A DNA stretch of 64,000 nucleotides from Candidatus Limnocylindrales bacterium (GCA_036556145.1 DATBKB010000095.1:809-64808); one strand, 5' to 3'; shown: positions 47,381-64,000, counted from the first letter of the stretch. Numbers and translations are program-made. Notes: generated from the sequence alone by a model not told the origin.

Positions 47381-48622
47381 TCACCGCCATGCGAAGAGAG
47401 ACTTCCGGGCAGCCGGCTTCTGCGGCTCGGCCGCGGGCACCGGCTCGCGCTCGCCGACCACGGCGGCGGCGAGCCGAAGGATGTCGTGCGAGACCTGCGC
47501 CTCGCGGTTGCTCAGGAAGAAGGGCACGCCGCGGTTGAGCGCGTAGACGACGCTCCGGCCGTCGCTGACGATCGTGTGATCGACCTTGCGGCCGATCGAG
47601 TTCTCGACGTCGGTGACCTTGATCCCGAGCGTTGAGTCGGCCCGATTGAGGACGAGGCGAACCTTGCCCGTCTCGTAGCCGAGCTGCTCCGCGACCTCCA
47701 GGAAGAGGCGCATGTTCTTGATGCTCGTGATCTCGAGGCTGAGCATCGTCAGGATGATGTCGGCGCTGTCGAGGATGCCGAGGGTCGTGTCGTTGAACCA
47801 CGACGTGCAGTCGACGACGACGAGGTCGTGCTTCGCCCGGAGCGCCTCGAGGACCTTCTTGACGCCGGACGGGTTGATGAGCTCGGCCATCTCGGGGGAC
47901 GGTGGGGCGAGCAGGACGCCGATGCCGGCGGAGTGGTTGATGACGAAGGTATCGAGCGAGTCGGCCTCGCCCGCCTCGAGCTCCGGCACGAGGTCGGCGA
48001 TCGACTTGTTGCGGGGGTTGAGGTTGAGGAGCACGCCGACGTCGCCGAACTGGAACGAGCCGTCGACGAGGACGACGTCCTTGCCGAGCTCGGTCGCCGC
48101 GGCCACCGCGAGGTTCACGGCGACCGTCGTGCGGCCGACGCCGCCCTTCGGGCTGAAGACCGCGACGAGGATCCCGGGATCGCGGGACGGGCCGTCGGTC
48201 CCGCTCGCGACCGGCACGGCCGCGGCCATCCGCGACAGCTTCTCCCGCTCGCGGATGTAGACCTGCCGGATCGAGGCGGTCAGCTCGTCGCTGCTGAACG
48301 GCTTGACGAGGAACTCGCGCGCGCCGGCGAGCATCGAGCGCCGAAGGTAGTCGGCCTCGCCCTGGACGGACATCATGACGACCGATGCCGTCGGCGCCCG
48401 CGCGGCGAGCTGTTCGGTCGTGCTGATGCCGTCCATGTCCGGCATGTTGATGTCCATCAGCACGACGTCCGGCTGGAGCTTCACGGCGAGCTCGATCGCC
48501 TCGCCACCCGACGACGCGGACCCGACCACCTCGATGTCGGCCTCGAAGCCGAGGAGCTTGGTCAGGTGATCCCGCGTCTCCGGGATGTCGTCGACGATCA
48601 GGACCTTGATCTGGTCGGCCAT
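47381..48622 (-). CDS. cpaE: CpaE/TadZ-like pilus assembly protein (N-terminal receiver domain + ParA/MinD-like ATPase domain)
   Basis: REC-like N-terminus (KVLIVDDIPETRDHL...VVLMDINMPDMDG) fused to deviant Walker A ATPase (VFSPKGGVGRTTVAVNLA). Confidence 0.85.
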   Translation of the reverse strand: MADQIKVLIVDDIPETRDHLTKLLGFEADIEVVGSASSGGEAIELAVKLQPDVVLMDINMPDMDGISTTEQLAARAPTASVVMMSVQGEADYLRRSMLAGAREFLVKPFSSDELTASIRQVYIREREKLSRMAAAVPVASGTDGPSRDPGILVAVFSPKGGVGRTTVAVNLAVAAATELGKDVVLVDGSFQFGDVGVLLNLNPRNKSIADLVPELEAGEADSLDTFVINHSAGIGVLLAPPSPEMAELINPSGVKKVLEALRAKHDLVVVDCTSWFNDTTLGILDSADIILTMLSLEITSIKNMRLFLEVAEQLGYETGKVRLVLNRADSTLGIKVTDVENSIGRKVDHTIVSDGRSVVYALNRGVPFFLSNREAQVSHDILRLAAAVVGEREPVPAAEPQKPAARKSLFAWR

Positions 48623-48750
48623 CTGGGAGCTGTCAGTTCCCTAGCGAGACTTGCGATGGATGGGAGCGACGGGCGCGGGACGTTGCGTCCGCGCGCCCGT
48701 CGGGGCCTGTCCGGGGAGCCGGCCGCCCCTGGCGACCGCTCGATCGGTGA

Positions 48751-49632
48751 CTACTGCCGCTCCGGCAGGATTGCTTCGACGAGCTGCGGGATGAGGACGT
48801 CGTACTCGTCGACGAGGACCCGCAGGGTCACGCCGGTCGTGCCGGCCGCCTCGCCGGGGATGACGTTGCCCTGCTCGTCGCGGAAGTCGTTCGGCGAGCG
48901 CAGGACGAGCGACACCGTGCCGTCCATCTGGGCGAACTTGATGACCTCGGCCTGCTGCGGCGTCACCGAGAGGATGACGATCTCCTGCTGGCCGGTGAGG
49001 GTCACGCCCTGCTCACCCTGGGTCTGGCCCTCGGTCGTCTCCCGCGGCGGGAGCAGGGTGCCGATGACCTGCATGCCCTGGAGCAGCAACTTGACGCTGG
49101 TGGCGTTGATGCCCGAGACGACGTTGATCGTGTCGTCCGACGGGTTGAGCGTGACGACCGGGAACTTGTCGGTGCCGAAGCCGACGAGCAGGTCGACGTA
49201 GTCACCCTGTCGGATGACGGTGCCGACGCCCGAGACCTGGTCGACCTGGATCGCGATCGCGCGCTGTCCGGGCGGCACCGTGACGTTGATGAGGCCGGTC
49301 GAAGCTCCGGTATCGAAGTCGCGGGCCGTCAGCTGCTTGCCGGCCGCGATGTCCTGACGGGCGATCTTGCCGAGCAGGAGGCTGGCGTCCGGGAAGGCCT
49401 GCGCGTCACGCTGGGTGACCGCGAGGTTCTTGCTGGTGAGCATGTCCGCGGTGATCGGCGTGCCGAGCGCGATGGCTCGGGCGGCGAACACCGTCGGGAG
49501 CTGCGATGGCGTCTGCGTGCCGCCGCCGCCACCGCGGTCGCCCTGGAAGACGACCACGATTCCGACGAAGGCGACGATCGCGAGGAAGACGCCGATGAGC
49601 AGGACGAGCCGATTCGAGCGCTTCAAGTGCAT
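48751..49632 (-). CDS. cpaB: Flp pilus assembly protein CpaB/RcpC (SAF domain)
   Basis: N-terminal TM anchor then SAF/CpaB region (PTVFAARAIALGTPITADML..., ATSVKLLLQGMQVIG). Confidence 0.8.
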   Translation of the reverse strand: MHLKRSNRLVLLIGVFLAIVAFVGIVVVFQGDRGGGGGTQTPSQLPTVFAARAIALGTPITADMLTSKNLAVTQRDAQAFPDASLLLGKIARQDIAAGKQLTARDFDTGASTGLINVTVPPGQRAIAIQVDQVSGVGTVIRQGDYVDLLVGFGTDKFPVVTLNPSDDTINVVSGINATSVKLLLQGMQVIGTLLPPRETTEGQTQGEQGVTLTGQQEIVILSVTPQQAEVIKFAQMDGTVSLVLRSPNDFRDEQGNVIPGEAAGTTGVTLRVLVDEYDVLIPQLVEAILPERQ

Positions 49633-49829
49633 TCTCCCCGTGTGTGACAGGTGGCACCATGATGGGGAGGGCCTCGGGGGCCCGCGACTATACGGATTGG
49701 CTAGGACCCCCGGGAAGATTCGGCAGGAAACGCCGCGTGACGAAAGGTCGCCCGCAAGGTGGCCCTCCGGCCCGACCGGTGCTCAGGCAAGGTTCGACGC
49801 AAGGTCCGGCAGGCCGCGGGCCGGCGCGG

Positions 49830-49988
49830 GTGCTCTCGAGCCGCCCGCGGCGCCCGCTGCGCCTCTGGAGCCGCCCGCGGCGCCTGCTGCGCCCTCTCGA
49901 GCCGAGCGCTGCGCCTGCTGCGCCTCTGGGAGCCGCCCGCGGCGCCCGCTGCGCCCTCTCGAGCCGCCCGCTGCGCCTCCCGCGGGCC
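49830..49988. repeat. Tandem direct repeat array 1: five ~31-bp units, consensus TCTCGAGCCGCCCGCGGCGCCCGCTGCGCC
   Basis: Units at 49830, 49864, 49895, 49925 and 49957, directly abutting with no spacers; non-coding flp1-cpaB intergenic region. Confidence 0.7.
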
Positions 49989-50039
49989 CCCGCCTTCTCG
50001 CAGGTACGCACCCTGCGCGTGGTAGATCGCGGACCGGGC

Positions 50040-50285
50040 CGCTTCGTCAATCGGCTACGCACCAGGTGCGTACCTGAGCCCTCGTTCGCGCCTTTCGCCC
50101 TGCCGCGCGGCGCCAACACGCACCACGTGCGTACCTGAGCCTCGGTCCCGCACGTCGCCTACCCGCGCGGCGCCAACACGCACCGGGTGCGTACATGAGT
50201 GCTCGTCGGCGCCGTCTGCCCTGCCACGCGGCGCGAACCCGAACCACGTGCGTACCCCGGCCTCGGTCTGCGACGCTCCGCGGGC
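50040..50285. repeat. Tandem direct repeat array 2: ~4 units of ~60 bp, each carrying a TACGCAC-N3-GTGCGTA inverted repeat
   Basis: Palindromes at 50056-50072 (TACGCACcagGTGCGTA), 50118-50132 (ACGCACcacGTGCGT) and 50178-50192 (ACGCACcggGTGCGT); degenerate fourth copy ~50245; half-site GTACGCAC at ~50003. Units share the flank GCCGCGCGGCGCCAACACG...GTACCTGAGCCTCGGTC. Confidence 0.6.
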
Positions 50286-50322
50286 AACGAAAAAGCGGCC
50301 CGCCGTTCGTCCGGCGGGCCGC
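50286..50322 (-). terminator. Intrinsic terminator downstream of flp1 (minus strand)
   Basis: Perfect 11-bp GC stem (gcggcccgccg / cggcgggccgc), 6-nt loop; on the minus strand followed by UUUUUCGUU; 20 bp after the flp1 stop. Confidence 0.6.
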
Positions 50323-50343
50323 TTTGATTGGCGGTTCAGGGGG

Positions 50344-50538
50344 TCAGGGCGTGACGCTGTCGATCGAGCTGCCGATGACGCTGAGCTTGTCGCTCACCTG
50401 GCTGCCCAGGAACATGAGCGCGGAGATTGCGACGATCGCGATCAGGGCGAGAATGAGTGCGTATTCGGCCAGGCCCTGGCCATCCTCGTCGCGGCGGATG
50501 AGCGAATAGAGCCGGACGAGTGCGGAGCGGATGCCCAC
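50344..50538 (-). CDS. flp: Flp family type IVb pilin 1
   Basis: Flp motif G-x4-EY (RRDEDGQGLAEYALILALIAIVAI), hydrophobic helix and Ser/Thr-rich tail; AAGGAGGTG RBS 5 nt before GTG at 50538 (ORF track start 50622 is an unsupported extension). Confidence 0.75.
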   Translation of the reverse strand: MGIRSALVRLYSLIRRDEDGQGLAEYALILALIAIVAISALMFLGSQVSDKLSVIGSSIDSVTP

Positions 50539-50769
50539 CAGTTCACCTCCTTTCATCGGAGTCGTTGGCGGACCCGGTTGCCACAGGGCTACTGCCGGTC
50601 CGGCGCCGCTCGTACAGGCCACACTAGGTTTGCCGGTACGGGTGTCAATGACCCGAATGGGGGGAGTGGTGACGAGGCGCCACGAGCGTCCGCCACGCTC
50701 CCCGGAAGAGTCGAACCGCCGGCCCGACAGGCGGGCCGGCGGTCCGGATGGTCGCGAGTCAGGAGGCGA

Positions 50770-50940
50770 CTAGATCGAGTCGCCGACCGTGCTGAGGATC
50801 GTGCTGACCTGCGAGCCGAGGAAGATCAGCGCGACGATCGCGACGATCGCGATGAGGGCGAGGATCAGCGCGTACTCGGCGAGACCCTGGCCTTCCTCGT
50901 CGCGACGGAACGACGCGATAAGTGCATGAAGGAACGACAT
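50770..50940 (-). CDS. flp: Flp family type IVb pilin 2
   Basis: MSFLHALIASFRRDEEGQGLAEYALILALIAIVAIVALIFLGSQVSTILSTVGDSI; AGGAGG RBS 9 nt upstream of ATG 50940. Confidence 0.75.
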   Translation of the reverse strand: MSFLHALIASFRRDEEGQGLAEYALILALIAIVAIVALIFLGSQVSTILSTVGDSI

Positions 50941-51196
50941 GTGCTTCGACACCTCCTTTCCTTCAGAAAGTCCCTCGGTATACGCCGAAGGCGAGGCCAA
51001 CGTACGAACGCCGGCATGGGTGCCGCAATGGGACTTCAGGGATAGGACCTGGTGCGTCGGCGCCCTCGTCACGCACGGGCCCGGGGCAGCCCGTCAACGG
51101 GAGTCGTGGAGGGGAGAGCGGCCGCCCGGTGGGCGGCGGGCAAAACGAAACCGCCGGGCCCGAAGGCCCGGCGGTTAGACCGTTCTGGCGTGACGA

Positions 51197-51367
51197 CTAG
51201 ATCGAGTCGCCGACGGTGCTGAGGATCGTGCTGACCTGGGCGCCCAGGAAGATCAGGGCGACGATCGCAACGATCGCGATGAGGGCGAGGATCAGCGCGT
51301 ACTCGGCGAGACCCTGGCCATCCTCGTCGCGGCGAAGCGCGGCGAAGAGCGAGTGAATGAGCGCCAT
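51197..51367 (-). CDS. flp: Flp family type IVb pilin 3 (near-identical paralogue of pilin 2)
   Basis: MALIHSLFAALRRDEDGQGLAEYALILALIAIVAIVALIFLGAQVSTILSTVGDSI; AGGAGG RBS 9 nt upstream of ATG 51367. Confidence 0.75.
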   Translation of the reverse strand: MALIHSLFAALRRDEDGQGLAEYALILALIAIVAIVALIFLGAQVSTILSTVGDSI

Positions 51368-51519
51368 CTGAGGCTGCCTCCTGGATGAGTTCCACCCTCG
51401 GTCGAGGGCCTCAGCCACTATTGCAGCGCCCATCCGGCCGGGAAACTAGCGGAATCGTACTGCCGAAGGGTCCCAGTAGCGTGGGTTCGGGCACCGCCCG
51501 GTCAACGGCCGGGCGCCCC

Positions 51520-51702
51520 CTAGCGGCCCTCGGACGCCTCCACGGCCCGGGCGATGAAGTCGAGCACGTCGGCGACCGTGCCGCCGGCGAACGTCAGCAG
51601 GCCCAGGGCGAAGAGCGCCGCGCCGCCGAGGATCAGGCCGTACTCGACGATGCCCTGGCCGGCGATGCGCCGAGGCACCGGTCGACCGGGGCGTCGAGTC
51701 AC
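51520..51702 (-). CDS. Divergent Flp-like prepilin 4
   Basis: VTRRPGRPVPRRIAGQGIVEYGLILGGAALFALGLLTFAGGTVADVLDF...; G-x4-EY motif present; GTG start overlaps the stop of the upstream degenerate kinase (GTGA). No obvious RBS. Confidence 0.5.
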   Translation of the reverse strand: MTRRPGRPVPRRIAGQGIVEYGLILGGAALFALGLLTFAGGTVADVLDFIARAVEASEGR

Positions 51703-52847
51703 CGCGACGCCGTCGTCGGCTCGGCGGACGTGGCGTCCGCGATCACGAGCAGCGTGCCGCCGTCGTCGATGAGCTGGACGGTCGCCCCGATTGGCGCCGC
51801 TCGCTGCTGGATCTCCCGCCAGGCGGCGTCGGGGAGCGTCAGCTGCCACGCCTGGCGAGCCGCCTCGGCCGCCTTGAGCTGGTCCGCGCGGCGATCCTCC
51901 ATCATCGCCGCGAGCGCCGGCGGGACGTCCTTGCCGGCCTTCTTGTCGCGCTCGGCCTCGACCGGCACGCTCGGCCGCTCACCGCTTCGCTTCGCGCTGA
52001 CCCGGGCCTCGAGCTGGTCTGACCAGTCGAGGCGGATCGCCAGCGAATCGGGGGCCTGGGAGAGGTAGGCGGCGAGCGCCTCGTCGACGATGCGGAAGAG
52101 CGCGCTCTCGATCTCGACCGGCAGCCGCCGGTCGGCCCCGAGCGAGTCGAACGACACCGCGACGCCCGCCCGGCGGCCGCGGTCGCGGGCGGCGCGGCGG
52201 AGCGTGGGCACGAGCCCGAGGTCGTCGAGGACCATCGGCCGGACGTCGAAGATGAAGGACTTCGTCGCCTCGAGCGTCTGCTGGACCATGCCGATGAGGA
52301 GCCCGACCTCGGTCCGCGCCCGGGCGGTGTCGGTGGCGAGGAGCCGTTCCACGATCTGGGCCTGGAGGACGATGTTCGTCAGGCTCTGCGCGGGACCGTC
52401 GTGCATCGCGCGCGCAATCTCGCGGCGAAGATCCTCCTGGGCGGCGAGGACGGCCCGCGACGCCGCCGGCGGCAGCGACCCGTCGGCGGCGGACAGCGTC
52501 CGGGCCGGTGCATCGGCAGCCGCGAGCTTGCCGAGCGACTCGCGGAAGCGCGCGAGTGTCTTCCGCTTGCCCTCGAGGACGTCGACCTGGGCCTCCATGA
52601 GCGCCGCCCGACGCGTCAGCGTGACGAGCTGGTCGCTGAGCTCGAGGCGCTCCTTGAAGTCGGCGTTGCGGTCGACGAGGATCGTCATCTTGTCCGCAGC
52701 CTGCTTGCGCTTCTGCTCGTGGCGAGCGGACTCGGCCTTCGCCTGGTTGATGAGCAGCTCGATCTCACGGAGCTCCTTGTCGAGCACGGCAAGCTCCGCG
52801 GCGAGGGGCTGATCGGCGGGCGCGGAGGCGGTCACGGAATCGGTCAC
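51699..52847 (-). CDS. DegS-like cytoplasmic histidine kinase paralogue with degenerate ATP-binding domain (putative pseudokinase)
   Basis: Coiled-coil N-terminus and HisKA_3 H-box (LRREIARAMHDGPAQSLTNIVLQAQIVERL). C-terminal region lacks clear N/G1/G2 boxes (no KHA, no DxGxG/GxGL) and carries a low-complexity insertion. Confidence 0.65.
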   Translation of the reverse strand: MTDSVTASAPADQPLAAELAVLDKELREIELLINQAKAESARHEQKRKQAADKMTILVDRNADFKERLELSDQLVTLTRRAALMEAQVDVLEGKRKTLARFRESLGKLAAADAPARTLSAADGSLPPAASRAVLAAQEDLRREIARAMHDGPAQSLTNIVLQAQIVERLLATDTARARTEVGLLIGMVQQTLEATKSFIFDVRPMVLDDLGLVPTLRRAARDRGRRAGVAVSFDSLGADRRLPVEIESALFRIVDEALAAYLSQAPDSLAIRLDWSDQLEARVSAKRSGERPSVPVEAERDKKAGKDVPPALAAMMEDRRADQLKAAEAARQAWQLTLPDAAWREIQQRAAPIGATVQLIDDGGTLLVIADATSAEPTTASR

Positions 52848-52914
52848 GCGAGCGCGGTCCCCTGACTTCTGGTCGGAGTTCGTGGAGCGGTGATGGGTCG
52901 GCCGGTGCCCGGGG

Positions 52915-53661
52915 TCAGTCCTCGGGCATCCGGATCCATCCCTGGCGCATCGCGTACACGACGGCCTGGGTGCGGTCGTTCACCGACAGCTTGCGCAGGA
53001 TCGAGCTCATGTGGTTCTTGACGGTCTGCTCGCTGATCGACAGGGAGTAGGCAACCTGCTTGTTCGTCATGCCCTGGGCGATGTTGTCGAGGATCTCGAC
53101 CTCGCGCGGCGAGAGCGGCGCGAAGATCGGGGCCGCTTCCTGGCCGTAGACGGCCAGCTCGCGGAACTCCTTGAGCACGCGGCTCGCGACCGACGGCTTC
53201 GCGAAGACCTTGTCGTTGATCAGGTACTCGCCCGTGACGACGCGGCGAATGATCGTGACGAGGTCGTCGGGTCCGACGTCCTTGAGGATGAACGCGGCCG
53301 CGCCGGCCTTGATCGCATCGAACAGCGCGTCCTCGTCCTCACTGACGGCGAGCACGATGATCCCCGTCGACGGCAGCTCGCGCTTGATCCGCTGGGTCGT
53401 CTCGATGCCGCCGGGGGCGGGCAGCGAGAGGTCCATGAGGATGATGTCCGGCGACGTCTCGAGCGACCGGTCGACCGCGGAGCGGCTGTCGTCGGCCTCG
53501 CCGACGACGTCGAAGTCCGACTCGCGCTCGATGATGTTCTTGATCCCGACCCGGAACAGGGCGTGGTCGTCGACGATGAGGATCCGGGTCTTCTCGCCCG
53601 GACCACGCCGGTCGGGGCCGCCCCGACGGCGCTCCGGGCCGCTGTAGTCGATTGCCGTCAT
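52915..53661 (-). CDS. NarL/FixJ (DegU-like) response regulator
   Basis: REC domain (ILIVDDHALFRVGI...IILMDLSLPAPGGIETT) and LuxR-type HTH (LSPREVEILDNIAQGMTNKQVAYSLSISEQTVKNHMSSILRKL). Confidence 0.85.
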   Translation of the reverse strand: MTAIDYSGPERRRGGPDRRGPGEKTRILIVDDHALFRVGIKNIIERESDFDVVGEADDSRSAVDRSLETSPDIILMDLSLPAPGGIETTQRIKRELPSTGIIVLAVSEDEDALFDAIKAGAAAFILKDVGPDDLVTIIRRVVTGEYLINDKVFAKPSVASRVLKEFRELAVYGQEAAPIFAPLSPREVEILDNIAQGMTNKQVAYSLSISEQTVKNHMSSILRKLSVNDRTQAVVYAMRQGWIRMPED

Positions 53662-54734
53662 GTCGTCTCCTTTGCTCCCATCGGGATCGCGAGCCGGACG
53701 ACCGTGCCCTCACCGGGTCGCGATCGTACGTCGAGACGGGCCCCGATCAGCTCGGCCCGCTCCTGCATGAACCGGACTCCGAAGTGGCGGCGACCCTGGG
53801 TGGTCGCCGTGGCGAGGTCGAATCCCCGCCCGTCATCGCGAATTTCGAGGACCCAGTCCTCACCTTCGACCCGGGTCGTGACGGACACCTTGGAGGCCGA
53901 GGCGTGCTTGCGGACATTCTGGAGCGCCTCCTGCGCGACGCGCAGGGCGACGGTCTGGGCGGCGTCCGGGAGCCGCCCGTCGGGAGCCGTGAGATCGCTC
54001 TCGACGGTGACATGGATGAGCGATCCGGCCTGACGGATCGTCTCCTCGAGCGCGCCGTTGAGGCCGACGGCGTCGAGGAGCGGTGGCCGGAGCTGGCCGA
54101 TGAAGCCCCGAACCTCGCCGAGCTCGCGGCGCAGGAGGTCGCGCAGCGAGAGCAGCTCGATCCGGGCCTGGCGCGGATCCTTGCCGACGATCCGCTCGAT
54201 GTATTCGACCTGGAAGATCGCGTTCGACAGCACCTGCGCCGGCCCGTCGTGGACCTCCTGGGCGAGCCGCGAGCGCTCGGCCTCCTGGGCCTGGACGATC
54301 CGCAGGTTCACGTCCGCGGTGCCGCCGCCACCCGATGGGTTGATGAGGCTCGTGTCGCCGCGCTCGAGGAAGAGCCACAGCGATTCGAGATTGCGGACGG
54401 CGAGCTCGAGGCGGTTGAGCTCGGCCTGTTGACGGCCCAGCTCGCCACGGCGGCGATGGAGCTCCTGGCGCGGATCGATCTTGCCCGCGGCCGGGGGCCG
54501 AATCGCTTCCCGGGCGGCGTCTCGCGCCTCGACGCGGCGTCGCAACGCGAGCCAGGCCGCCTGCTCCTCGCCGTAGGCGGTGCGGTACTCCTCGCGGAGC
54601 GCGCGCAGCTTGTTCGCGGTGGACGCGAGGGCGGCCTTCGCCTCGGCATGGAGCCCCTCGATGCGCCCGACCGGCGACTCGGCCCCGGCGCGTGCTGCGT
54701 CCATCTGGCGGCGAGTATACGGAACGTCTTTCAT
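53658..54734 (-). CDS. DegS-like cytoplasmic sensor histidine kinase (HisKA_3 + HATPase_c)
   Basis: Coiled-coil N-terminus, H-box (RLAQEVHDGPAQVLSN), N-box (QEALQNVRKHASA), G1 (IRDDGRGFD), G2 region. Start ATG 54734 overlaps the stop of the upstream GT (ATGA); stop overlaps the RR start (ATGA). Confidence 0.85.
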   Translation of the reverse strand: MKDVPYTRRQMDAARAGAESPVGRIEGLHAEAKAALASTANKLRALREEYRTAYGEEQAAWLALRRRVEARDAAREAIRPPAAGKIDPRQELHRRRGELGRQQAELNRLELAVRNLESLWLFLERGDTSLINPSGGGGTADVNLRIVQAQEAERSRLAQEVHDGPAQVLSNAIFQVEYIERIVGKDPRQARIELLSLRDLLRRELGEVRGFIGQLRPPLLDAVGLNGALEETIRQAGSLIHVTVESDLTAPDGRLPDAAQTVALRVAQEALQNVRKHASASKVSVTTRVEGEDWVLEIRDDGRGFDLATATTQGRRHFGVRFMQERAELIGARLDVRSRPGEGTVVRLAIPMGAKETT

Positions 54735-56401
54735 CGGCAGACCACCCGGAAGACGCGCGTGCCCTCGAGCGCCGCCGCGAGTCGGGGATCGTCGGGGGTG
54801 CCGAGCGGGACCTCGTCGAAGCACTCGGTGCCCGGTCCGCCGGCGTCGAGGATCGCGGGCCACACCTCGTGCTGGCCGCCGTGGATCACGAGCGTGCGCG
54901 TCCCGGGGAACGCGGCCGCGAGCGCGAGCACCGACGCCGGTCGCTCGTCCGGGAGCGCGAGCCCGCGGGCGCCGGTCGTCTCGGCCAGCCAGATCGGGTA
55001 GTCGGTAATGACGGGGCCGATGTCCCGCAGCGGCAGGCCGGCCGCGGCCATCTCGGCCTCGAGCGCCACGTACCGGTTGGCGGTCTCGCGCGAGCCGGCG
55101 CCGAACGACGGCAGCAGCGCGATCGAGAAGAGCGCCGCGCCGGCCACCGTCAGCGTCGCCCCGAGCCAGGCCACCGGCCGCGTCCAGCCCCGCAGCCGGC
55201 CGACCCGGGCAATCAGCGCGTCGAGGCCGAAGAGCGCCGAGACGATGAGCAGCACGTGGACCGGTCCCGCGGCGTGGAGAAACGTGCCCCACGTCGTCGC
55301 GACCGGGAACAACAGGCTCGTCACCGTGAACGTCAGGGCCGAGACGAGGACGACCGGCCGCAGCGCAACCGAGCGGACGAGCCACGGCAGCGCGACGAGC
55401 CCGACGATCGACACGGGGGCGCCCGGCGCGAGCAGGACGTTGACGAGGTTGTGGGCGAGGCCGTCGACGCGCATCTCGATGAGGCGCGCCGGCCCGACCG
55501 CGAGGTACCGGGCGAGCGTCGGCGGGTCGGCCCAGGCGAAGACGTCCGAGCCGCGGACGGAGAGCGCGTTCGACAGCGCCTGTCCCGGCAGCGGGTTGCC
55601 GAAGACGATCCAGTCGCGGATCGCCCACGGGGCGAAGAGGGCCAACGCGATGACGCCCGGCACCGCCACCATCGCGACCTTGCGGCGCCGGTCCGGCCCG
55701 CGTCGCGACCACATGATGAGCACCCAGGCGAGCGCAAGCCAGGCCGCTTCGTTCCGCGTCCACGCCGCGAGGCCGAGCAGCGCGCCGAGGCCGACGAGCC
55801 GGGCGTCGAGGAGCCGCAACTCCTCGGCGGCCCGGGCGGCTCGCGTCATGAGAAGGCACGCGCCGAGGGCGAGCACCGTGAACGGCATCGTCGAATCGGG
55901 CAGGGCGCTGTGGAGCAGGAGCGGCAGCGACACGGCGGCCGTCAGACCGGCACCGAGCGCGAGCGTTCGCGCGCGACCCGGCGGCAGGCCGCGCTCCGCG
56001 GCAAGGTCGGCCGCGAGTCGCCAGGCCAGCGGCGGGACGGCCGCGCCGACGAGCACCGAGCTCAGCTGCGCCGCGGCAAACGTCGAGCCGAGCACCGCCA
56101 TCGGCATCGCCGCGAGCAGCGTCGGGAGCGGCAGCCAGACCTCGAATGCGGCGCGCGGGATCTCGAGCGGCGGCGTGCCGTAGCTCCAGAGCGCGTCGCT
56201 CACCATGCCACGGCCCTCGAGGATGTTCGCGGCGACCGCGACGTAGTAGGCGGTGTCCTCGGGCTTCGGGAACACGACGAGCGACGCGGCGACGACTCGA
56301 ACCGCGAGACCGAGGGCGACGACGGCCGCGAGGGCCGCGATCGCGGGCAGCGTGAGGACCGCCCGCACCGAGACGGGAGCGAGGGTCGCCGGCCGGGTCA
56401 C
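54731..56401 (-). CDS. GT-C fold membrane glycosyltransferase, PMT_2/ArnT-like (GT39/GT83 family), copy 2
   Basis: ~556 aa polytopic; first-loop acidic motif (FPKPEDTAYYVAVAANILEGRGMVSDALW) typical of Pmt/ArnT-like GT-C enzymes. GTG start at 56401 overlaps the stop of copy 3; the six-frame ORF to 57547 is a frame overlap. Confidence 0.7.
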   Translation of the reverse strand: MTRPATLAPVSVRAVLTLPAIAALAAVVALGLAVRVVAASLVVFPKPEDTAYYVAVAANILEGRGMVSDALWSYGTPPLEIPRAAFEVWLPLPTLLAAMPMAVLGSTFAAAQLSSVLVGAAVPPLAWRLAADLAAERGLPPGRARTLALGAGLTAAVSLPLLLHSALPDSTMPFTVLALGACLLMTRAARAAEELRLLDARLVGLGALLGLAAWTRNEAAWLALAWVLIMWSRRGPDRRRKVAMVAVPGVIALALFAPWAIRDWIVFGNPLPGQALSNALSVRGSDVFAWADPPTLARYLAVGPARLIEMRVDGLAHNLVNVLLAPGAPVSIVGLVALPWLVRSVALRPVVLVSALTFTVTSLLFPVATTWGTFLHAAGPVHVLLIVSALFGLDALIARVGRLRGWTRPVAWLGATLTVAGAALFSIALLPSFGAGSRETANRYVALEAEMAAAGLPLRDIGPVITDYPIWLAETTGARGLALPDERPASVLALAAAFPGTRTLVIHGGQHEVWPAILDAGGPGTECFDEVPLGTPDDPRLAAALEGTRVFRVVCR

Positions 56402-58026
56402 GAGCCGCACCGATCGTCGGTCGCGGTGACGCACACCGGATAGAGCGCGATCTCCGGCCCTGGCCGGGGCGGCGCGTAGGCCCGGAAGATCGGCCGGCCG
56501 ATCCAGCTCGGACGCGACTGGCCGAGGAGCACCGGCGCGAGCGGCGCGACGATGTCGTCGCGCTCGAGGACGAGCCAGCGCGTGCCGTAGGCGCGCGCGA
56601 CGGACTCGATCGTGTCGAGTGGGTCGTTGGGGGTCACGACGCCGCCGCGGCCCGTGGCGTAGCGCATGCCCGCGGCATCGATCGACAGGATTCGATCGTT
56701 CATGCCCGCGCCCGCGGCATCGAGGGCGACCGCGACGGCGGAGCGCGCCTCGCGCTTGCGATCCCAGCCGGCGTGGACCGAGACCGCCGACGCGACCGCG
56801 GCGAACAGCGCGAATACGACCGCGGCGGTCGTGAAGATGCGCGTCGCACCGGCCGGATTCCAGGACCGGCGGCGGGCGGCCGTCCAGGCGACGCCGACGG
56901 CGATCCCCTCGACGGCCAGGATGTACGAGTGGGGGACCAGCGCGACCGCGCTGTGGATGAACGTGCCGCCGGGCACGTGGACCGCCGAGACGAGCGCCGA
57001 GAATGCGAACAGCAGCCCGGCGTAGGCGAAGAACGGCCCGAAGTCGCGCGACCGCCGCCGCGCCCAGCCGCCGATCGCCATGAGCGGCACGAGGAGGCCC
57101 GCGCCGACGAGCGTCGTGTAGATGAGCGCCGCCGCGATGAGGCCGCCGATACGGCTCGCGACGAGCGGCCCGGCGCCCTGGCCGAGGAAGGAGTCGAGGT
57201 TGGCCGGCGTGGTGATGCTGTTCCACTCGTCGATCGAGCGGATGTAGAGGACCCTGCCCGTCGCCGCCGACGGGGACAGCGAGCCGAAGACCTCGAGCTG
57301 GCGCAGCCACCACGGCCCGACGGCGAGGAGGAACAGCACGAGTGCCGCGACCGCGGCCCAGGCCGGGATCGCCGGCGCACGGCCGCCGCCCGCACGCCAC
57401 GCCCGCCACCGGTCGTACAGCACCGCGAGACCGAACGTTGCCGCGAGCAGGACCCCGTCGTTGCGCGACATCGTCGCAAGGCCGACGAGCAGGCCACCGA
57501 GGACGAACGACCGGGGATGGCCCTTGAGCCCGCGCGCGGCCATCCACAGCGCCCCGACGGCGAGCGGCTGGAACAGCGAGAAGTTGTCCGGCTGGGGCAT
57601 GAAGACCAGCGACAGCGCCGGGATCGCGGTGAGGATCCCTGCCGCGAACGCGACGGCCGGGCTCGCCCCAGCTTCGCGTGCGATGGCCCAGCAGAGCGGC
57701 GCCGCGATGGCGCCGATGAGCGCGAACGGCAGCGCCGACGCGAACGCCGTCGGTCCCAGGACCGCGATGAACGGAACCTGGACGAACGACGCGAGCGGCA
57801 TCCAGTGGGCGTTGCTCGGAATCGGCAGCGTCGGATCCGACGGGATCCCGCCACCGACCTCGGCGAAGATCCAGATGAAGTCGACGCTCAGCCCGTGGCC
57901 CGTCGCGAGCGCCCGCGCGACGTCGGTGTAGTAGTAGCTGTCGGGGTAGGCAGGGTCGGGGAACAGCGCGACCAGGACCAGTCGCGCCGCGAGCGCCAGT
58001 ACGTAAAGGAGGGTGGGGATGCCCAC
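56398..58026 (-). CDS. GT-C fold membrane glycosyltransferase, PMT_2/ArnT-like (GT39/GT83 family), copy 3
   Basis: ~542 aa polytopic; VGIPTLLYVLALAARLVLVALFPDPAYPDSYYYTDVARALATGHGLSVDFIW; GTG start 58026 proposed (ORF track extends to 58995 through low-complexity Arg/Glu/Asp sequence that is probably not translated). Confidence 0.65.
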   Translation of the reverse strand: MGIPTLLYVLALAARLVLVALFPDPAYPDSYYYTDVARALATGHGLSVDFIWIFAEVGGGIPSDPTLPIPSNAHWMPLASFVQVPFIAVLGPTAFASALPFALIGAIAAPLCWAIAREAGASPAVAFAAGILTAIPALSLVFMPQPDNFSLFQPLAVGALWMAARGLKGHPRSFVLGGLLVGLATMSRNDGVLLAATFGLAVLYDRWRAWRAGGGRAPAIPAWAAVAALVLFLLAVGPWWLRQLEVFGSLSPSAATGRVLYIRSIDEWNSITTPANLDSFLGQGAGPLVASRIGGLIAAALIYTTLVGAGLLVPLMAIGGWARRRSRDFGPFFAYAGLLFAFSALVSAVHVPGGTFIHSAVALVPHSYILAVEGIAVGVAWTAARRRSWNPAGATRIFTTAAVVFALFAAVASAVSVHAGWDRKREARSAVAVALDAAGAGMNDRILSIDAAGMRYATGRGGVVTPNDPLDTIESVARAYGTRWLVLERDDIVAPLAPVLLGQSRPSWIGRPIFRAYAPPRPGPEIALYPVCVTATDDRCGS

Positions 58027-58140
58027 GGCGCGGTGCAGGGTAGCACCGGCCCTAAGCCAATCGGACCAGTACGAATCGGCTAGCGAGGGGGGCGAACGGA
58101 TGGGCTGACGGGGCGGTTCGCGCCGCGCAGATTCGGCCCC

Positions 58141-59046
58141 ATGCCATCCCCGTGGGCCGGCTCCGGCCGTCGCGTGCTCCGTGCGGTCGGTGCCACGCTC
58201 GCCGCATTCGGCTTCGTCATCGGGGTCCAGATCGCGGTCATCCACTTCCAGGTCGATCCCTTCGCCGACGTCCGCGCGTACTACGACGCCGCGACCCGGC
58301 TCAACGCCGGCGCCGGCCTCTATGACCAGGCCGTTGGGACCAACGAGGCCGCGTTCTACCGGTACCCGCCGCTGCTCGCCATCGCCTTCCGGCCGCTCGC
58401 CCTGCTGCCGTTCGAGGCCGCGGCGCTCGTCTGGGAGGTCGTCGTCGTCGGGGCGTTCGCGCTGACCCTGTGGCGGGTGGGTCTCGGCCGGCGGACGCTC
58501 CTGCTCGTCGGGCTGCTCGGCCTGCCGATCGGCTGGAGCATGGCGATTGGCCAAGCCCAAGTTCCGGTCACGCTCCTGACCGCGCTGGGCACGCCGCTGG
58601 CGCTCGCCCTGGCGACGAACCTCAAGGTCCTGCCGGCCCTCGCGGCCGTCTGGTGGATCGGCCGCCGCGACTGGGCGGCGCTCACCCGGTTCGCCACATG
58701 GATGGTCGCCCTCATCGCTCTCCAGCTCGTCCTCGAGCCTCGCGGCTCGCTCGCCTTCCCGGCCGTCCTGACCCTCGACCACGTCGGCCAGGTCCGGAAC
58801 TTCTCCCCGTACGTCGTCTCGCCCGCCCTCTGGGTGGCACTCGTCGCGGCCGGCGGGCTGCTCGCGGTTCGCCTTGCCCCGACGCGGTATGGCTGGGCGG
58901 CGGCCGTCGCCCTCTCGGTGCTCGCGACGCCGCGCCTCCTCACGTACCAGCTGATGACGCTCATCGCGGCCCTCCGAGAGCCCGCATCGTCCCATCGGGC
59001 TGTCGCGCCGGCGCCCGCGGCGGCGCCTGCGAGGAGCGTCGCGTGA
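58141..59046 (+). CDS. DUF2029/GT87-family membrane glycosyltransferase (PimE-like mannosyltransferase-like), copy 1
   Basis: Polytopic; DUF2029 hallmark YxYPP (AAFYRYPPLLAIAF) and VRAYYDAATRLNAGAGLYD loop. Confidence 0.7.
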   Translation: MPSPWAGSGRRVLRAVGATLAAFGFVIGVQIAVIHFQVDPFADVRAYYDAATRLNAGAGLYDQAVGTNEAAFYRYPPLLAIAFRPLALLPFEAAALVWEVVVVGAFALTLWRVGLGRRTLLLVGLLGLPIGWSMAIGQAQVPVTLLTALGTPLALALATNLKVLPALAAVWWIGRRDWAALTRFATWMVALIALQLVLEPRGSLAFPAVLTLDHVGQVRNFSPYVVSPALWVALVAAGGLLAVRLAPTRYGWAAAVALSVLATPRLLTYQLMTLIAALREPASSHRAVAPAPAAAPARSVA

Positions 59047-60290
59047 TCGACGCCCGAACCCCGGCTCGCTCGAGGACCGGCGGGGCCGCTGCGCGGCACC
59101 GGGGCGCCGGCCGCGCCGGCGGCTGGCTGGCCGCGGTCGCCTGGCTGCTCCTCGGCGGCGGGATGTGGGCCGGGATCGGCCTCCTCGCTGCCCGGATGTT
59201 CGCCACCGACCCGCCGACCGCCGGCTTCGACCTCGAGCTCCTGCTCGCCGCGGGCCGCGACGTCGCCGCCGGCCGGTCGCCCTACGACCCCGCGATCGTC
59301 GCCGGCGCGGCCCCTGCCGGGACGCAGCTCTTCTACTCGTACCCGCCGCTCGTCGCGCAGGCCATGTCGCTGCTGGCCGGCCTGCCGGCCGGCGCCGTCT
59401 TCGCCGCCTGGTCCGTGACCGCCGTCGCGGGCGTCGGCATCGCGGCGTTCCTCCTGCGTCGGGCGCTCGGGGTCAGGCTCGAGAGCGGTCTCGCGATCGC
59501 CGGCGCGGTCGCCGCCTCGGCGGTCGTGCTGCCGTTTGCCATCGGCATCCTGTTCGGCAACGTCGACGCGTTCTTCCCCCTGCTGTACGGCTTGCTCCTC
59601 GCCGGGTGCCTGGCGTGGGGACGCCCGGCGCAGCTCGTCGGCGGCGCGGCGATCGCGGTCGCGGCCCTCGTAAAGGTCCACCCCGCCTCGATCGGCATCT
59701 GGCTGGTCGCCCGGCTCGTCCGCGCTCGCCGCGAGGGTCGGTCCTGGCCGGTGAACGGCGTCGTCGTCGGCAGCGCGGTGGCCGGCGCCGCCCTGCTCGG
59801 GCTGAGCCTCATCGCGGGTGGCCTTGCGCCGTGGCTCGAGTACGCGAAGGTCGCCGGCGTCATCGGCGGGTCGGACCTGCTCGATCCGCGCAACGCCGGG
59901 CTGGCGGCGCAGGTCGCCCTCCTCGCCGGGGGCGACAACGGCCTCGTCCGCATGCTCCAGCTCCCCGTCGCCGTGGGCGCCGCCGCGGTCTCGGCCTGGT
60001 CCGCATGGTCTCGTGACGACGTCGTCGAGAGCCTCGCCTGGGGGGCGGCCGCGTCGCTCGTCGTGCTGCCCGTGACCTGGTACCACTACCCGGCGGCGCT
60101 GCTCCCGTTCGGGATCGCGGCGATGCTCCGGGCGCACGAGACCGCGACGGCGCCGCGGACGGCCGCGCTGCTCGCCGGCGCCTGCGCGGTCGCCGCCGCG
60201 GCGCTCTTGTGGCTGCCGCTGCTGTGGGTCGCCGTCGCGCTCGTCATCGCGGCAACGCGGGCCAGCTGGCCCGAGGCGGCCCGGCGATGA
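59043..60290 (+). CDS. DUF2029/GT87-family membrane glycosyltransferase, copy 2
   Basis: QLFYSYPPLVAQAMS motif; GTG start overlaps the stop of copy 1 (GTGA). Confidence 0.7.
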   Translation: MIDARTPARSRTGGAAARHRGAGRAGGWLAAVAWLLLGGGMWAGIGLLAARMFATDPPTAGFDLELLLAAGRDVAAGRSPYDPAIVAGAAPAGTQLFYSYPPLVAQAMSLLAGLPAGAVFAAWSVTAVAGVGIAAFLLRRALGVRLESGLAIAGAVAASAVVLPFAIGILFGNVDAFFPLLYGLLLAGCLAWGRPAQLVGGAAIAVAALVKVHPASIGIWLVARLVRARREGRSWPVNGVVVGSAVAGAALLGLSLIAGGLAPWLEYAKVAGVIGGSDLLDPRNAGLAAQVALLAGGDNGLVRMLQLPVAVGAAAVSAWSAWSRDDVVESLAWGAAASLVVLPVTWYHYPAALLPFGIAAMLRAHETATAPRTAALLAGACAVAAAALLWLPLLWVAVALVIAATRASWPEAARR

Positions 60291-61303
60291 GCCGCGCCCA
60301 GTCGCTCACGTGGTCGGGCGTGTGGCCCGCGCTCTCCGCGCGCCTCGGACCCTCGCATCGGAAGCTCGCCTGGTACACGCTGACGGTCATCGGGCTCGTC
60401 GCCCTGCCGTACATCATCGTGCTCAACCGGGTGCGCTCGACGTGGGGCTTCGACGCCTACGCGTACTGGGCGATCGACCTCGGCGACCTCTACGGGCGGT
60501 CCCTCCAGAACACGTCGGGCTACGGCGCGTTCCGCTACACGCCGGCGATCGGTCAGGCGTTCTCGGTCTTCGGCGTGCTGCCGTGGGAGGCGTTCTTCGC
60601 CGGCTGGTTCGCGCTCATGCTCGTGGCGCTCGTGTGGATGGCGGGCCGCGACGCCCTCCCGCTGCTGGCGTTCCCGCCGCTCGCCCTCGAGCTGTACCAC
60701 GCGAACGTCCACCTGTTCATGGCCGTCGCGATCGTCCTCGGCTTCCGCTGGCCCGCGACGTGGGCGTTCCTCGTCCTCACGAAGGTCACGCCCGGGATCG
60801 GGCTCCTGTGGTTCGCGATCCGCCGGGAGTGGCGAAGCCTCGCGATCGCCCTCGGCGTGACGGTCGGACTGGCGACCCTCTCGTTCGTCGTCGCCCCGGC
60901 CCTCTGGCGCGAGTACGTCCTGACGATGGTCGACAACCTGTTCTACGACCGCGGCCGGCCCTACCCGATCCCCGTCCCGATTGCCGTCCGGCTCGTCCTC
61001 GCCGCCGCCCTCGTCATGTACGGCGCCCGGACCGACCGCCGCTGGCTGGTCCCGGTCGCCTCGACGATCGCGCTCCCGATCATCTGGTGGCACGGCCTGT
61101 CGATGCTCATCGCGGCCATCCCGCTCTGGCGGGCGGATCGCGCGGCGCGCGCCGCCGGTCGCGCCGCCGGTCACGCCGCGGGTCCCGCCGCGGGTCCCGC
61201 CGCCGGTCACGCCGCGGGTCCCGCCGCCAGCCGCCCGGCGCTCGCCGGCACCGGGGCGGACCCTCGTCGAACGTCGACCGGACGTTCGGGGGAGGTCCGG
61301 TGA
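60287..61303 (+). CDS. DUF2029/GT87-family membrane glycosyltransferase, copy 3, with Ala/Gly-rich repeat C-terminus
   Basis: GAFRYTPAIGQAF motif; ATG overlaps the stop of copy 2 (ATGA). C-terminal AAGRAAGHAAGPAAGPAAGHAAGPAA encoded by five tandem 15-bp repeats (~61140-61230). Confidence 0.7.
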   Translation: MSRAQSLTWSGVWPALSARLGPSHRKLAWYTLTVIGLVALPYIIVLNRVRSTWGFDAYAYWAIDLGDLYGRSLQNTSGYGAFRYTPAIGQAFSVFGVLPWEAFFAGWFALMLVALVWMAGRDALPLLAFPPLALELYHANVHLFMAVAIVLGFRWPATWAFLVLTKVTPGIGLLWFAIRREWRSLAIALGVTVGLATLSFVVAPALWREYVLTMVDNLFYDRGRPYPIPVPIAVRLVLAAALVMYGARTDRRWLVPVASTIALPIIWWHGLSMLIAAIPLWRADRAARAAGRAAGHAAGPAAGPAAGHAAGPAASRPALAGTGADPRRTSTGRSGEVR

Positions 61304-61355
61304 GGACTCGTGCCAACCAGAATTCACCGATACCGCAGCACACGAGGGGACTCAC

Positions 61356-61517
61356 GTGGATTCGCTGATCCTCGCCTACATCGATCCGGGCTCCGGGAGC
61401 CTCATCATCCAGGCGGTGATCGCGACCCTGCTGGCGGTCCCGTTCTTCCTCCGCGAGCAGATCGGCCGGGTCGTCCGCAGCGTTCGTCGCGACAAGCCGA
61501 ACGACCGCCCGTCCTGA
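61356..61517 (+). CDS. Small hypothetical membrane protein (53 aa)
   Basis: VDSLILAYIDPGSGSLIIQAVIATLLAVPFFLREQIGRVVRSVRRDKPNDRPS; GAGGGGA Shine-Dalgarno 6 nt upstream of GTG; one TM helix. Confidence 0.4.
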   Translation: MDSLILAYIDPGSGSLIIQAVIATLLAVPFFLREQIGRVVRSVRRDKPNDRPS

Positions 61518-61554
61518 GCGGGCCGGGCAACTCCACCGCCGACCACCCCGCCCG

Positions 61555-62976
61555 GTGATCGACGCCGCCCCGGCGACCGACCGTCCCCGTCCGGCCGCCG
61601 CCCCCGATCCCGGCTCCTTCCGCGACCCGAGCGGCTTCGTCTTCCGCCGCGACGGGGCGGTGCTCCGCCAGATCAATGCGGCGTTCGCCGTTCGCTGGGA
61701 CGACCTCGAGTCGAGCGGGCTGCTCGACGCGCTCCAGGCGAAGGGCATGCTCGTCGCCCACGTCCCCGCGCCGATCGACACGGCGCTCCGCCCGGACATC
61801 GCCCACGCGGTCATCCGCCCGGAGCCGATCGACTTCGTCTCGTACCCGTACGAGTGGTCGTTCGGCCAGCTCCGTGACGCGGCCCTGCTGACGCTCGACG
61901 TCCAGGCCGCCTGCCTCGAGGCCGGATTCACGCTCCGCGACGCGACCGCGTACAACGTCCAGTTCCATCGCGGCCGGCCGATCCTCATCGACACGCTCTC
62001 GTTCGAGCGGGCCCTGCCGGGCCGCCCCTGGACGGCCTACCGCCAGTTCTGCGAACACTTCCTCGCCCCGCTGGCTCTCATGGCGACGCGGGACGCCCGC
62101 TGCGGGCTGATGCTTCGTGAGTTCGTCGACGGGATCCCGCTCGATCTCGCGGCCCGGCTGCTGCCGTTCCGGACGAAGCTCCGGCTCGGGCTCCTGTCGC
62201 ACGTCCACCTCCACGCCAGGGCCCAGACCCGCTACGCAAATGTCGCCGACGCGGACCGGGTACGGGTGGCGACGATGAGCCCGCTCCGCCAGCGCGCGCT
62301 CATCGACTCGCTCCGGCGAACCGTCGCCGGGCTGCGCTGGGATCCGTCGGGCACCGAGTGGGCCGACTACGCCGAGCACACGAGCTACGACGACGACGCG
62401 GCCCGGGCCAAGGACAGCCTCGTCCGGGACTTCCTCGCCGCGGCGGGCGGCGATCGCGTGTGGGACCTCGGCGCGAACACCGGCCGGTTCAGCCGGATCG
62501 CGGCCGGCCTCGGCCGCCGCGTCGTGGCCTGGGACGTCGACCCGGCAGCCACGGAGCGCCACTACCGCCGCGTCCGGACGGACGGCGAGACGGCGATCCT
62601 CCCCCTCGTCCTCGATCTCGCGAACCCAAGCCCGGGCCTCGGCTGGGCCGGGAGCGAGCGACGCTCGCTCGCCGAACGCGCCGACGCGGACACGGTCCTT
62701 GCCCTCGCCCTCGTCCACCACCTCGCGATCGGCCGGAACGTGCCGCTCGACCGGCTCGCGGCCTTCTTCGCCGGCCTCGCCCCGAACGTCGTCATCGAGT
62801 TCGTGCCGAAGGACGACCCCATGGTGCGGCGGCTCCTCGCCACGCGCGAGGACGTCTTCGCCGACTACTCCGCCGAGGGCTTCCGGGCGGCCTTCGGCCG
62901 CCGGTTCGAGATCCTCGCCGAGGCGCCGATTCCGGGGATGACCCGGAGCCTCTTCCGGATGCGCCGGCGGGGCTGA
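61555..62976 (+). CDS. Two-domain protein with C-terminal class I SAM-dependent methyltransferase
   Basis: 473 aa; C-terminal Rossmann MTase motif I (VWDLGANTGRFSRIAAGLGRRVVAWDVD) and post-I acidic residue; ~270-aa N-terminal domain of unknown function. Confidence 0.7.
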   Translation: MIDAAPATDRPRPAAAPDPGSFRDPSGFVFRRDGAVLRQINAAFAVRWDDLESSGLLDALQAKGMLVAHVPAPIDTALRPDIAHAVIRPEPIDFVSYPYEWSFGQLRDAALLTLDVQAACLEAGFTLRDATAYNVQFHRGRPILIDTLSFERALPGRPWTAYRQFCEHFLAPLALMATRDARCGLMLREFVDGIPLDLAARLLPFRTKLRLGLLSHVHLHARAQTRYANVADADRVRVATMSPLRQRALIDSLRRTVAGLRWDPSGTEWADYAEHTSYDDDAARAKDSLVRDFLAAAGGDRVWDLGANTGRFSRIAAGLGRRVVAWDVDPAATERHYRRVRTDGETAILPLVLDLANPSPGLGWAGSERRSLAERADADTVLALALVHHLAIGRNVPLDRLAAFFAGLAPNVVIEFVPKDDPMVRRLLATREDVFADYSAEGFRAAFGRRFEILAEAPIPGMTRSLFRMRRRG

Positions 62977-63130
62977 CCGGGCGGAGTCCGGGGGCCTCTG
63001 GTACCCGCCGGTATGGTCCTTTCGGGGTGGTTCGAAGGCGGCCGGTGAGCCCATACGATCCGGCCCGGGCCGGGCGGCGGCGAGCGCTCCGCCGAGCCCG
63101 TCTCCGACTCCAGGAGCCGCTCGAATCGCC

Positions 63131-64000
63131 CTCTACCCGATCCTCATCGCGGCCGCGCTCGTCGCCGAGCTGTTCGTCACCTCCGGGGTCAGCCCGGCGG
63201 TCGTCATCCGCAGCCTGGTCGTGGCGCTGGCCTTCGGCGCCCTGCTGAGCGGCGCCGGCCGCGGGCTGCTCGGTGATCGCCACCGCGGCGGGGTCCTCGC
63301 GACGTTCGTCATCATGCTGTTCCTCGTCGGGGCGGACGTTCGCCTCGCCGCCCTCCTCGGCGTTGTGATCGCGCTGCTCTTCGCCGAGCGGTACCTGCTC
63401 CCGCCCGCCCGGCGCGTGCGGTGGGCGATCATCGGCCGGTTCTTCTCGCGGGCGACGGCGATCTTCCTGCTCGCGATCGGCATCCAGGCGGTCCAGGCCG
63501 GGACGCCGGGTGTCATCGTCCGTGCGCTGACCGAGGAGGCGCCGTTCCGGCCCGCGTCGCCTGCCGTCGCGGGCGCGGAGGACCTCCCCGACATCTACCT
63601 GCTCCTCCTCGACGGCCACGCCCGGCCGGACGTCCTGAGCCAGGTCATCGGCCACGACCCGTCCGCGCTCGTCTCGGGGCTCGAGGCCCGCGGCTTCAGC
63701 GTCGCGCGGCAGAGCCGGACGAACTACTCACTGACCGTGCAGGTCCTCGCCTCGATGTTCAACATGCGGCCGCTCCAGGAGATCGACGCGGTCAAGGGCC
63801 TCATCGCCGGCACGGAATCGCGCCCGCCGGGCGCGATCATCCGCAGCGCGATCAACGACGGCCCGGTCCTCGAGCGACTTCGCGACGAGGGCTACCAGCT
63901 GACGGCCCTCGCCTCGAGCTACGAGGAGCCGGCCCTCCGCAGCGTCGACCGCTGGATCGACACCGGCGAGCTCAACGAGTTCGAGGTCAACCTCTTCCGG
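63131..64000 (+). CDS. Membrane protein with C-terminal extracytoplasmic domain, possibly sulfatase/alkaline-phosphatase-superfamily-like; open at window edge
   Basis: Frame open from ~63000 to the window end without a stop (so absent from the ORF track). Three N-terminal TM helices (LYPILIAAALVAELFV..., VLATFVIMLFLVGADVRLAALLGVVIALLF..., AIIGRFFSRATAIFLLAIGI) then a soluble domain with DIYLLLLDGHARPD. Start codon not identified. Confidence 0.4.

Follow-up and report, generated by a model that had tools for sequence, protein, structure and literature searches.

A putative composite cell-envelope glycan locus in a Candidatus Limnocylindrales bacterium ends in a three-gene module found across bacterial phyla

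GT-C glycosyltransferases act at the outer face of the membrane, and among them PimE and the other GT87 mannosyltransferases of mycobacteria use polyprenol-phosphate-mannose. Phospho-groups are transferred by LtaS, EptA, PptA and BcsG, membrane-anchored enzymes of the alkaline-phosphatase superfamily; PptA, for instance, adds phosphoforms to Neisseria pilin. Sorting signals such as LPXTG and PEP-CTERM consist of a short motif, a transmembrane helix and a basic tail. Finally, in E. coli O9a, WbdD adds a phosphate to the terminal mannose of polymannan and then methylates that phosphate (PMC3482155). Here we compare with these systems a block of six genes at 58141-64000 of a 64,000-nt stretch of DNA from a Candidatus Limnocylindrales bacterium (GCA_036556145.1 DATBKB010000095.1:809-64808), the whole of which we call the window. 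The block encodes three GT87 proteins (GT87-A, GT87-B and GT87-C), a microprotein, a protein that we call D, with a kinase-like domain predicted from its model and a methyltransferase domain, and a membrane protein, E, whose gene runs off the end of the window (Table 1).

A microprotein-D-E module across bacterial phyla

The last three genes of the block form an autonomous module, which occurs in many phyla unaccompanied by GT87, PMT_2 or Tad genes. The initial annotation had read the block as a single toolkit, either for building a methylated mannose-containing polymer or for glycosylating a surface protein in several steps. Because the microprotein, D and E travel together without the other genes, the block is not one toolkit. 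The gene families named for it and its divergent neighbours hold up by Pfam, Foldseek and homologues: three GT87 genes, PMT_2-like GT-C genes, an S-adenosylmethionine (SAM) methyltransferase and a membrane-anchored protein of the sulfatase superfamily. We consider it somewhat probable that two evolutionary units, the GT87 trio and the microprotein-D-E module, make up a composite locus for cell-envelope glycans, in which the module decorates a surface glycan.

The D family is large. Counted as cluster representatives at 50% identity, it has 7,672 members at E<=1e-3, of which 2,736 remain at E<=1e-30; nearly all measure about 455-475 aa. A scan of species-representative genomes confirmed D relatives at 593 matched stretches, and we kept 80 loci, which come from Chloroflexota, Gemmatimonadota, Acidobacteriota, Bacteroidota, Planctomycetota, Proteobacteria, Actinomycetota and other phyla (46-71% identity). 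By hidden Markov model counts, 74 of 81 loci have the microprotein gene immediately before D, in many cases with an overlap, and 41 of the 55 loci with enough flank have an E-like gene no more than 3.5 kb from D. Beyond these genes no neighbour is conserved: the 136 nearest neighbours, from 57 loci, carry 150 Pfam families, none of which appears in more than five loci, and we therefore regard the module as autonomous. There is no curated family for the microprotein or for the N-terminal domain of D, E reaches Pfam Sulfatase only at the borderline, and a literature search for the module motifs found no paper containing them.

The microprotein follows the consensus A-Y-[IL]-D-P-G-[ST]-G-S-x-x-x-Q, after which come a single transmembrane helix and a basic tail. 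We found 818 homologues; the best 120 of the 818 stand alone as proteins of 46-92 aa, and almost every one of these is hypothetical or unnamed. What had been noted as a small membrane open reading frame is thus a real gene, for which neither Pfam nor NCBIfam has a model. Outside Chloroflexota the homologues have a typical Sec signal peptide with AxA immediately before the Tyr of the motif, so that Y[IL]DPG[ST]GS should be the mature N-terminus, outside the cell. The order of signal peptide, short conserved motif, transmembrane helix and basic tail recalls that of sorting signals. Unlike them, however, the microprotein has no cargo domain between signal peptide and motif, and no sortase-like or exosortase-like gene is linked to it.

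D had been described as a two-domain SAM methyltransferase. The methyltransferase and the count of domains stand, but the N-terminal half is protein-kinase-like in its model. The AlphaFold model of the whole protein has a predicted local distance difference test score (pLDDT) of 82 and a predicted TM-score (pTM) of 0.86. The C-terminal domain gives Foldseek matches to ChlM, AzeJ, NodS and the methyltransferase domain of WbdD (E ~1e-7) and a weak Pfam match to Methyltransf_23, and its DLGANTG motif is invariant. The N-terminal domain matches no Pfam family even at E<=10 and no NCBIfam model. When residues 1-278 were modelled alone (AlphaFold 2, 14-sequence alignment, pLDDT 79), all of the top 50 matches in the PDB were protein kinases, with E ~1e-4 and TM-scores of 0.33-0.44. 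The residues D129, N134 and D146, in the pattern LRD129ATAYN134 and ILID146, are invariant in 20 sequences from several phyla. As modelled, D joins a protein-kinase-like domain to a SAM methyltransferase, the fold pair of WbdD.

The likeness to WbdD is one of folds only: a class I SAM methyltransferase and a protein-kinase-like domain in one cytoplasmic polypeptide. If D were a terminator of the WbdD type, it would cap with methyl phosphate a polysaccharide built in the cytoplasm and exported by an ATP-binding cassette (ABC) transporter, and would set its chain length, leaving E and the microprotein as accessory or unrelated. The presence of both catalytic folds of WbdD in D (PMC3482155) is consistent with this, as are the Wzm and Wzt genes beside the module in L043 and L072. 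Nevertheless, we think such a role very doubtful. The domain order in D is reversed, with the kinase-like domain first and the methyltransferase ending the protein at residue 473, and D has neither the C-terminal coiled-coil ruler nor the membrane helix of WbdD. The partners of D are the microprotein and a membrane enzyme of the alkaline-phosphatase superfamily, whereas those of WbdD are WbdA and Wzt, and the almost constant pairing with an exported microprotein has no counterpart in WbdD systems. Wzm and Wzt have no match in the window and, of the roughly 80 loci, are near the module in L043 and L072 alone, the only two that a pure terminator role fits. The Pfam domains Wzt_C and ABC2_membrane were confirmed for L043 only, L072 being assigned by tblastn similarity. 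A tblastn search with Wzt had returned eight loci, but in six of these the hits were generic ABC ATPases without the C-terminal part of Wzt, and we rejected them.

In some genomes the module sits in a polysaccharide cluster. That of L043 has two GT4 genes, Wzt with Wzt_C, Wzm, a sulfotransferase, a GT2 and a TPR-PMT_2 protein; that of L040 has epimerases and Bac_transf, an initiating sugar transferase. Two further proteins beside the module belong to no Pfam or NCBIfam family: a 233-aa protein seen only in L043, a gammaproteobacterial metagenome-assembled genome (L043:8968-9669), and a conserved protein of about 400 aa that recurs in Limnocylindria (L074:7166-8371, corresponding to L001:15143-16372).

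The claim of a membrane-anchored, sulfatase-like protein at the end of the block is right as to superfamily, membrane anchor and DGHARPD motif (LLLLDGHARPD in the translated fragment), but the nucleophile motif of sulfatases is replaced by an invariant Thr. The fragment of E in the window has no Pfam match. Full-length homologues reach Pfam Sulfatase (PF00884) with 28.8 and 26.9 bits, borderline against the cutoff of 25, and a profile of 12 homologues has sulfatases as its best PDB matches (6s21, E 2.7e-7), with a weak match to the EptA-like 4kav (E 0.068). Invariant in the family are D211, N248 and T252 (L001 numbering), H388, H393 and D465-x-G467; D204 and Y249 are found in at least 90% of the sequences. 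The Cys/Ser-x-Pro-x-Arg nucleophile motif of true sulfatases is absent from the E family, which has N-Y-x-x-T with the Thr invariant in its place, and for this reason E appears, from its conserved residues, more likely to be a phosphotransferase than a sulfatase. The family resembles LtaS, EptA, PptA and BcsG in its N-terminal multi-transmembrane domain (by hydropathy) and outside catalytic domain, its metal-ligand Asp residues, its nucleophile position occupied by Thr, and a D-(H/E)-G motif. It differs from them in that the similarity in sequence is marginal and the closest PDB profile matches are true sulfatases.

The start of E is uncertain. Public gene calls place it at GTG 63221, and close homologues begin at varying internal codons. 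A conserved first transmembrane helix (ARIALYPILIAAALVAELF, about 63119-63180) and coding-like third-position G+C lie upstream of that codon, and between 62977 and 63221 there is no in-frame ATG, GTG or TTG upstream of it. This combination points to a non-canonical start (ATA 63053 or ATC 63125) or to an assembly error. Near the module in L046 (L046:2532-4640, 85 bits to Pfam Sulfatase) and in L069 there is a further membrane protein of the sulfatase family, which is larger (about 700 aa) and more canonical.

The GT87 genes and the divergent pilus operon

The host belongs to Chloroflexota: D is identical to an NCBI protein from a Candidatus Limnocylindrales metagenome-assembled genome, and an actinobacterial origin was rejected. 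The window has a G+C content of about 72%, and coding sequence was told apart from the many spurious open reading frames by third-position G+C. By this measure 58141-64000 on the plus strand is a single run of coding, that is, one gene string. The translational coupling of its three GT87 genes is borne out by a GTGA overlap at 59043-59046 (A/B) and an ATGA overlap at 60287-60290 (B/C), both read directly from the sequence, and both overlaps recur in the relative L001. The YxYPP motif that had been ascribed to all three is present in A (YRYPP) and B (YSYPP), but C has FRYTP, i.e. YTP.

GT87-A, -B and -C are paralogues about 30% identical to each other. In likeness to PimE and other GT87 proteins, all three score above the gathering score of the Pfam GT87 model (PF09594), which is 25 bits, and all are polytopic (about 8-9 hydrophobic segments by hydropathy in A, about 8-10 over the set); they have in common an Asp in the first outer loop (Asp43 in A numbering, invariant in the three), a Y-x-Y-[PT]-P type motif and KVxP. 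They differ from PimE in being shorter, in standing in tandem as paralogues and in their Chloroflexota host. Searches of PDB sequences with GT87-A and GT87-B gave no match. The C-terminal tail of GT87-C is of low complexity (AAGxAAG), encoded by a 12-nt tandem repeat at 61150-61228 (6.6 copies); the L001 orthologue is shorter (301 aa) and, judged from that length, apparently lacks the tail.

Are these genes part of a characterised mannan pathway? Orthology to the phosphatidylinositol mannoside, lipomannan and lipoarabinomannan (PIM/LM/LAM) mannosyltransferases had been named as the finding that would overturn the initial annotation, and we did not find it. Against the NCBIfam PimE equivalog model (NF009915), GT87-A scores 41.9 bits where the cutoff is 413, and B and C have no match; no partners of the PIM/LM/LAM pathway were seen among the genes scanned (22-64 kb of the window). 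We therefore rejected a PimE orthologue or a PIM/LAM pathway as the identity of these genes. Within their known families, the GT87 and PMT_2 genes are in no way unusual.

On the other side of the block lies a divergent string of genes, and the shared intergenic region is present as described, although it measures 114 nt rather than 115. A simple scan found no sigma-70 promoter in 58027-58140, and promoter, terminator and Rfam scans gave no matches. The first two genes of the string, up1 and up2, encode PMT_2-like GT-C proteins that are 30% identical over 369 aa (BLASTP, E 1e-21). With the three GT87 genes and a third PMT_2 gene at some distance, they make up the six GT-C genes that had been counted. 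Overlaps of 4 nt join up1 to up2, up2 to the first histidine kinase, that kinase to the response regulator, and the second histidine kinase to the Flp-like gene, with a gap of 67 nt between the response regulator and the second kinase. This chain of overlaps puts the GT-C pair at the head of the pilus operon. The operon is a Tad/Flp locus by its CpaB, TadZ, TadA, TadB and TadC, and by its pilins, which carry GQG|LAEY (the G/xxxEY site). At their end the mature Flp pilins have a conserved tail with Ser residues, GGQVSxILSxVGxS. The CpaE/TadZ-type ATPase (47381-48622, minus strand) has an N-terminal response-regulator receiver domain, as it does in L002 and L083. A 711-nt gap between Flp1 and cpaB (49633-50343) has no open reading frame with coding third-position G+C and no Rfam match.

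When we compared genomes, the divergent pair proved to be conserved in L001, L002, L016, L083 and L084, whose D proteins are 64-81% identical to that of the window. The linkage of GT87, PMT_2, two-component and Tad genes is conserved only in close relatives. Past E, where L001, L083 and L084 stood in for the window's own contig, relatives of this type have a GT2, more GT87 genes, the ~400-aa protein, a FemAB-like protein and a GT4; upstream, they have between 0 and 3 GT87 genes. L001 has, between its GT87 genes and the microprotein, a ~700-aa protein with a spermine-synthase-like domain (L001:7537-9636); a homologue is near the module in L009, L052 and L074, and there is none at that position in the window.

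Two readings of this synteny compete with the one that we favour. First, the locus could be a pilus toolkit, in which the PMT_2-like pair puts the first sugar on Ser of the Flp pilin, the GT87 enzymes extend it and the module adds a phospho- or methyl group. The GT-C pair heading the pilin operon through 4-nt overlaps, the divergent arrangement of Tad, two-component and GT-C genes with GT87 genes and module in the five relatives, and the Ser-containing pilin tails are all what such a toolkit would predict. The module, however, spans phyla without Tad genes, GT87 genes vary in number and position among relatives, and the one Tad pilus with a solved structure, that of Caulobacter, has no density for glycosylation (PMC10710030). 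The pilus-specific role that had been proposed draws only on conserved synteny, translational coupling and the Ser-containing tails, and we hold it to be possible but unlikely; a general role in envelope glycans is more likely.

Second, the GT87 array, the module and the Tad operon could be neighbours merely by descent within one lineage, each acting on a different target. The module is mobile and its neighbours are for the rest unrelated, which is consistent with this, and in other Limnocylindria (L005-L012) the module lies beside miaA, PHP-domain and other genes. Yet the synteny holds among relatives in which a slowly evolving protein has no more than 64-81% identity, and a GT2, GT87 genes and the 400-aa protein recur beside the module in L001, L016, L052, L074 and L083, which makes adjacency alone quite improbable.

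Further from the block, the wecA gene (24236-25357) had been offered as a source of lipid-linked primer. The gene is real (Glycos_transf_4), but it has no specific tie to the block, from which it is 33 kb away. We rejected it as a dedicated primer enzyme, as it sits among housekeeping genes between glyA and the ATP synthase operon: glyA, this WecA/MraY-family gene and a full F1Fo ATP synthase operon stand in a row at 22911-33714, unrelated to the block, with murA-like and mreB genes next in line (33791-36132). An LPG_synthase_TM domain is encoded at 36898-37983, and the third PMT_2 gene adjoins a gene for a xylose-isomerase-like TIM barrel (together 38889-41797, minus strand).

Table 1. Features of the block and of the divergent gene string, in window coordinates
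Feature	Coordinates	Strand	Length	Description
GT87-A	58141..59046	+	301 aa	Polytopic GT-C; Pfam GT87 34.3 bits; Asp43, YRYPP
GT87-B	59043..60290	+	415 aa	Pfam GT87 48.6 bits; YSYPP; start overlaps stop of A
GT87-C	60287..61303	+	338 aa	Pfam GT87 32.6 bits; FRYTP; start overlaps stop of B
Microprotein	61356..61517	+	53 aa	VDSLILA-YIDPGSGS-LIIQ; one transmembrane helix, basic tail
D, whole gene	61555-62976	+	473 aa	
D, N-terminal domain	61555..62388	+		Protein-kinase-like in AlphaFold 2 model; invariant D129, N134, D146
D, C-terminal domain	62389..62976	+		Class I SAM methyltransferase (Foldseek); DLGANTG
E	63053..64000	+		Runs off window end, start uncertain; multi-transmembrane N-terminus and extracytoplasmic alkaline-phosphatase/sulfatase-superfamily domain
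Divergent intergenic region	58027..58140	.	114 nt	From up1 GTG 58026 (minus) to GT87-A ATG 58141 (plus)
up1	56398..58026	-	542 aa	PMT_2-like GT-C; Pfam PMT_2 34.8 bits; first gene of divergent operon
up2	54731..56401	-	556 aa	Paralogue of up1; 4-nt overlaps on both sides
Two-component genes	51699..54734	-		Histidine kinase (HisKA_3), LuxR-type response regulator, second histidine kinase (Pfam)
Flp/Tad locus	43959..51702	-		Flp-like gene, three Flp pilins, CpaB, CpaE/TadZ, TadA, TadB, TadC (Pfam Flp_Fap, RcpC, T2SSE, T2SSF)
Third PMT_2-like gene	38889-40457	-		GT-C (Pfam)

A possible role in decorating surface glycans

How might the two units of a composite envelope-glycan locus work together? 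From the observed gene structures, folds, conserved residues and linkage statistics we infer the donors, the acceptors, the chemistry and any physical complex as follows. The GT87 enzymes would extend a glycan at the outer face from polyprenyl-phosphate sugars, for which the GT2 encoded just downstream in relatives is a candidate donor synthase. The microprotein would be a small type-I membrane protein that shows Y[IL]DPG[ST]GS outside. The module as a whole probably adds or processes a decoration based on phosphate, perhaps methyl phosphate, that a surface glycan or glycolipid would carry, with the microprotein either joining the cytoplasmic and external enzymes or serving as their acceptor.

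Several points weigh against this favoured reading. The kinase-like call for D comes from fold similarity, at TM-scores of 0.33-0.44, and a motif pattern, with no matching sequence profile. The similarity of E to transferases of the LtaS/EptA type is marginal, so that E could be a hydrolase, and E is not adjacent in about a quarter of loci. Wzm and Wzt, which normally accompany cappers of the WbdD type, occur close to the module in only two of about 80 loci. Finally, because D is cytoplasmic while the GT-C enzymes and E act outside, a common substrate would need a flipping step.

A bolder proposal would go further. In it, the module is a previously overlooked three-component system across phyla, whose Sec-exported, cargo-less microprotein, laid out like a sorting signal (AxA, Y[IL]DPG[ST]GS, transmembrane helix, basic tail), is an obligatory membrane subunit, or an acceptor or primer, for a new phosphate-based (e.g. 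methyl-phosphate) surface modification, and which in Limnocylindria has been recruited to GT-C glycosylation of Flp pilins. We regard this as a long shot.

Although sequence clusters of the module number in the thousands and span bacterial phyla, it has neither a curated family model nor a publication or assigned function. It unites the fold pair of methyl-phosphate capping in E. coli with an outside enzyme of the phosphotransferase type and a conserved exported microprotein. The conserved coupling of GT-C and Flp pilin genes makes glycosylation of Tad pili a concrete proposition open to test, and the chemistry of the module could reveal a common, overlooked modification of bacterial surfaces.

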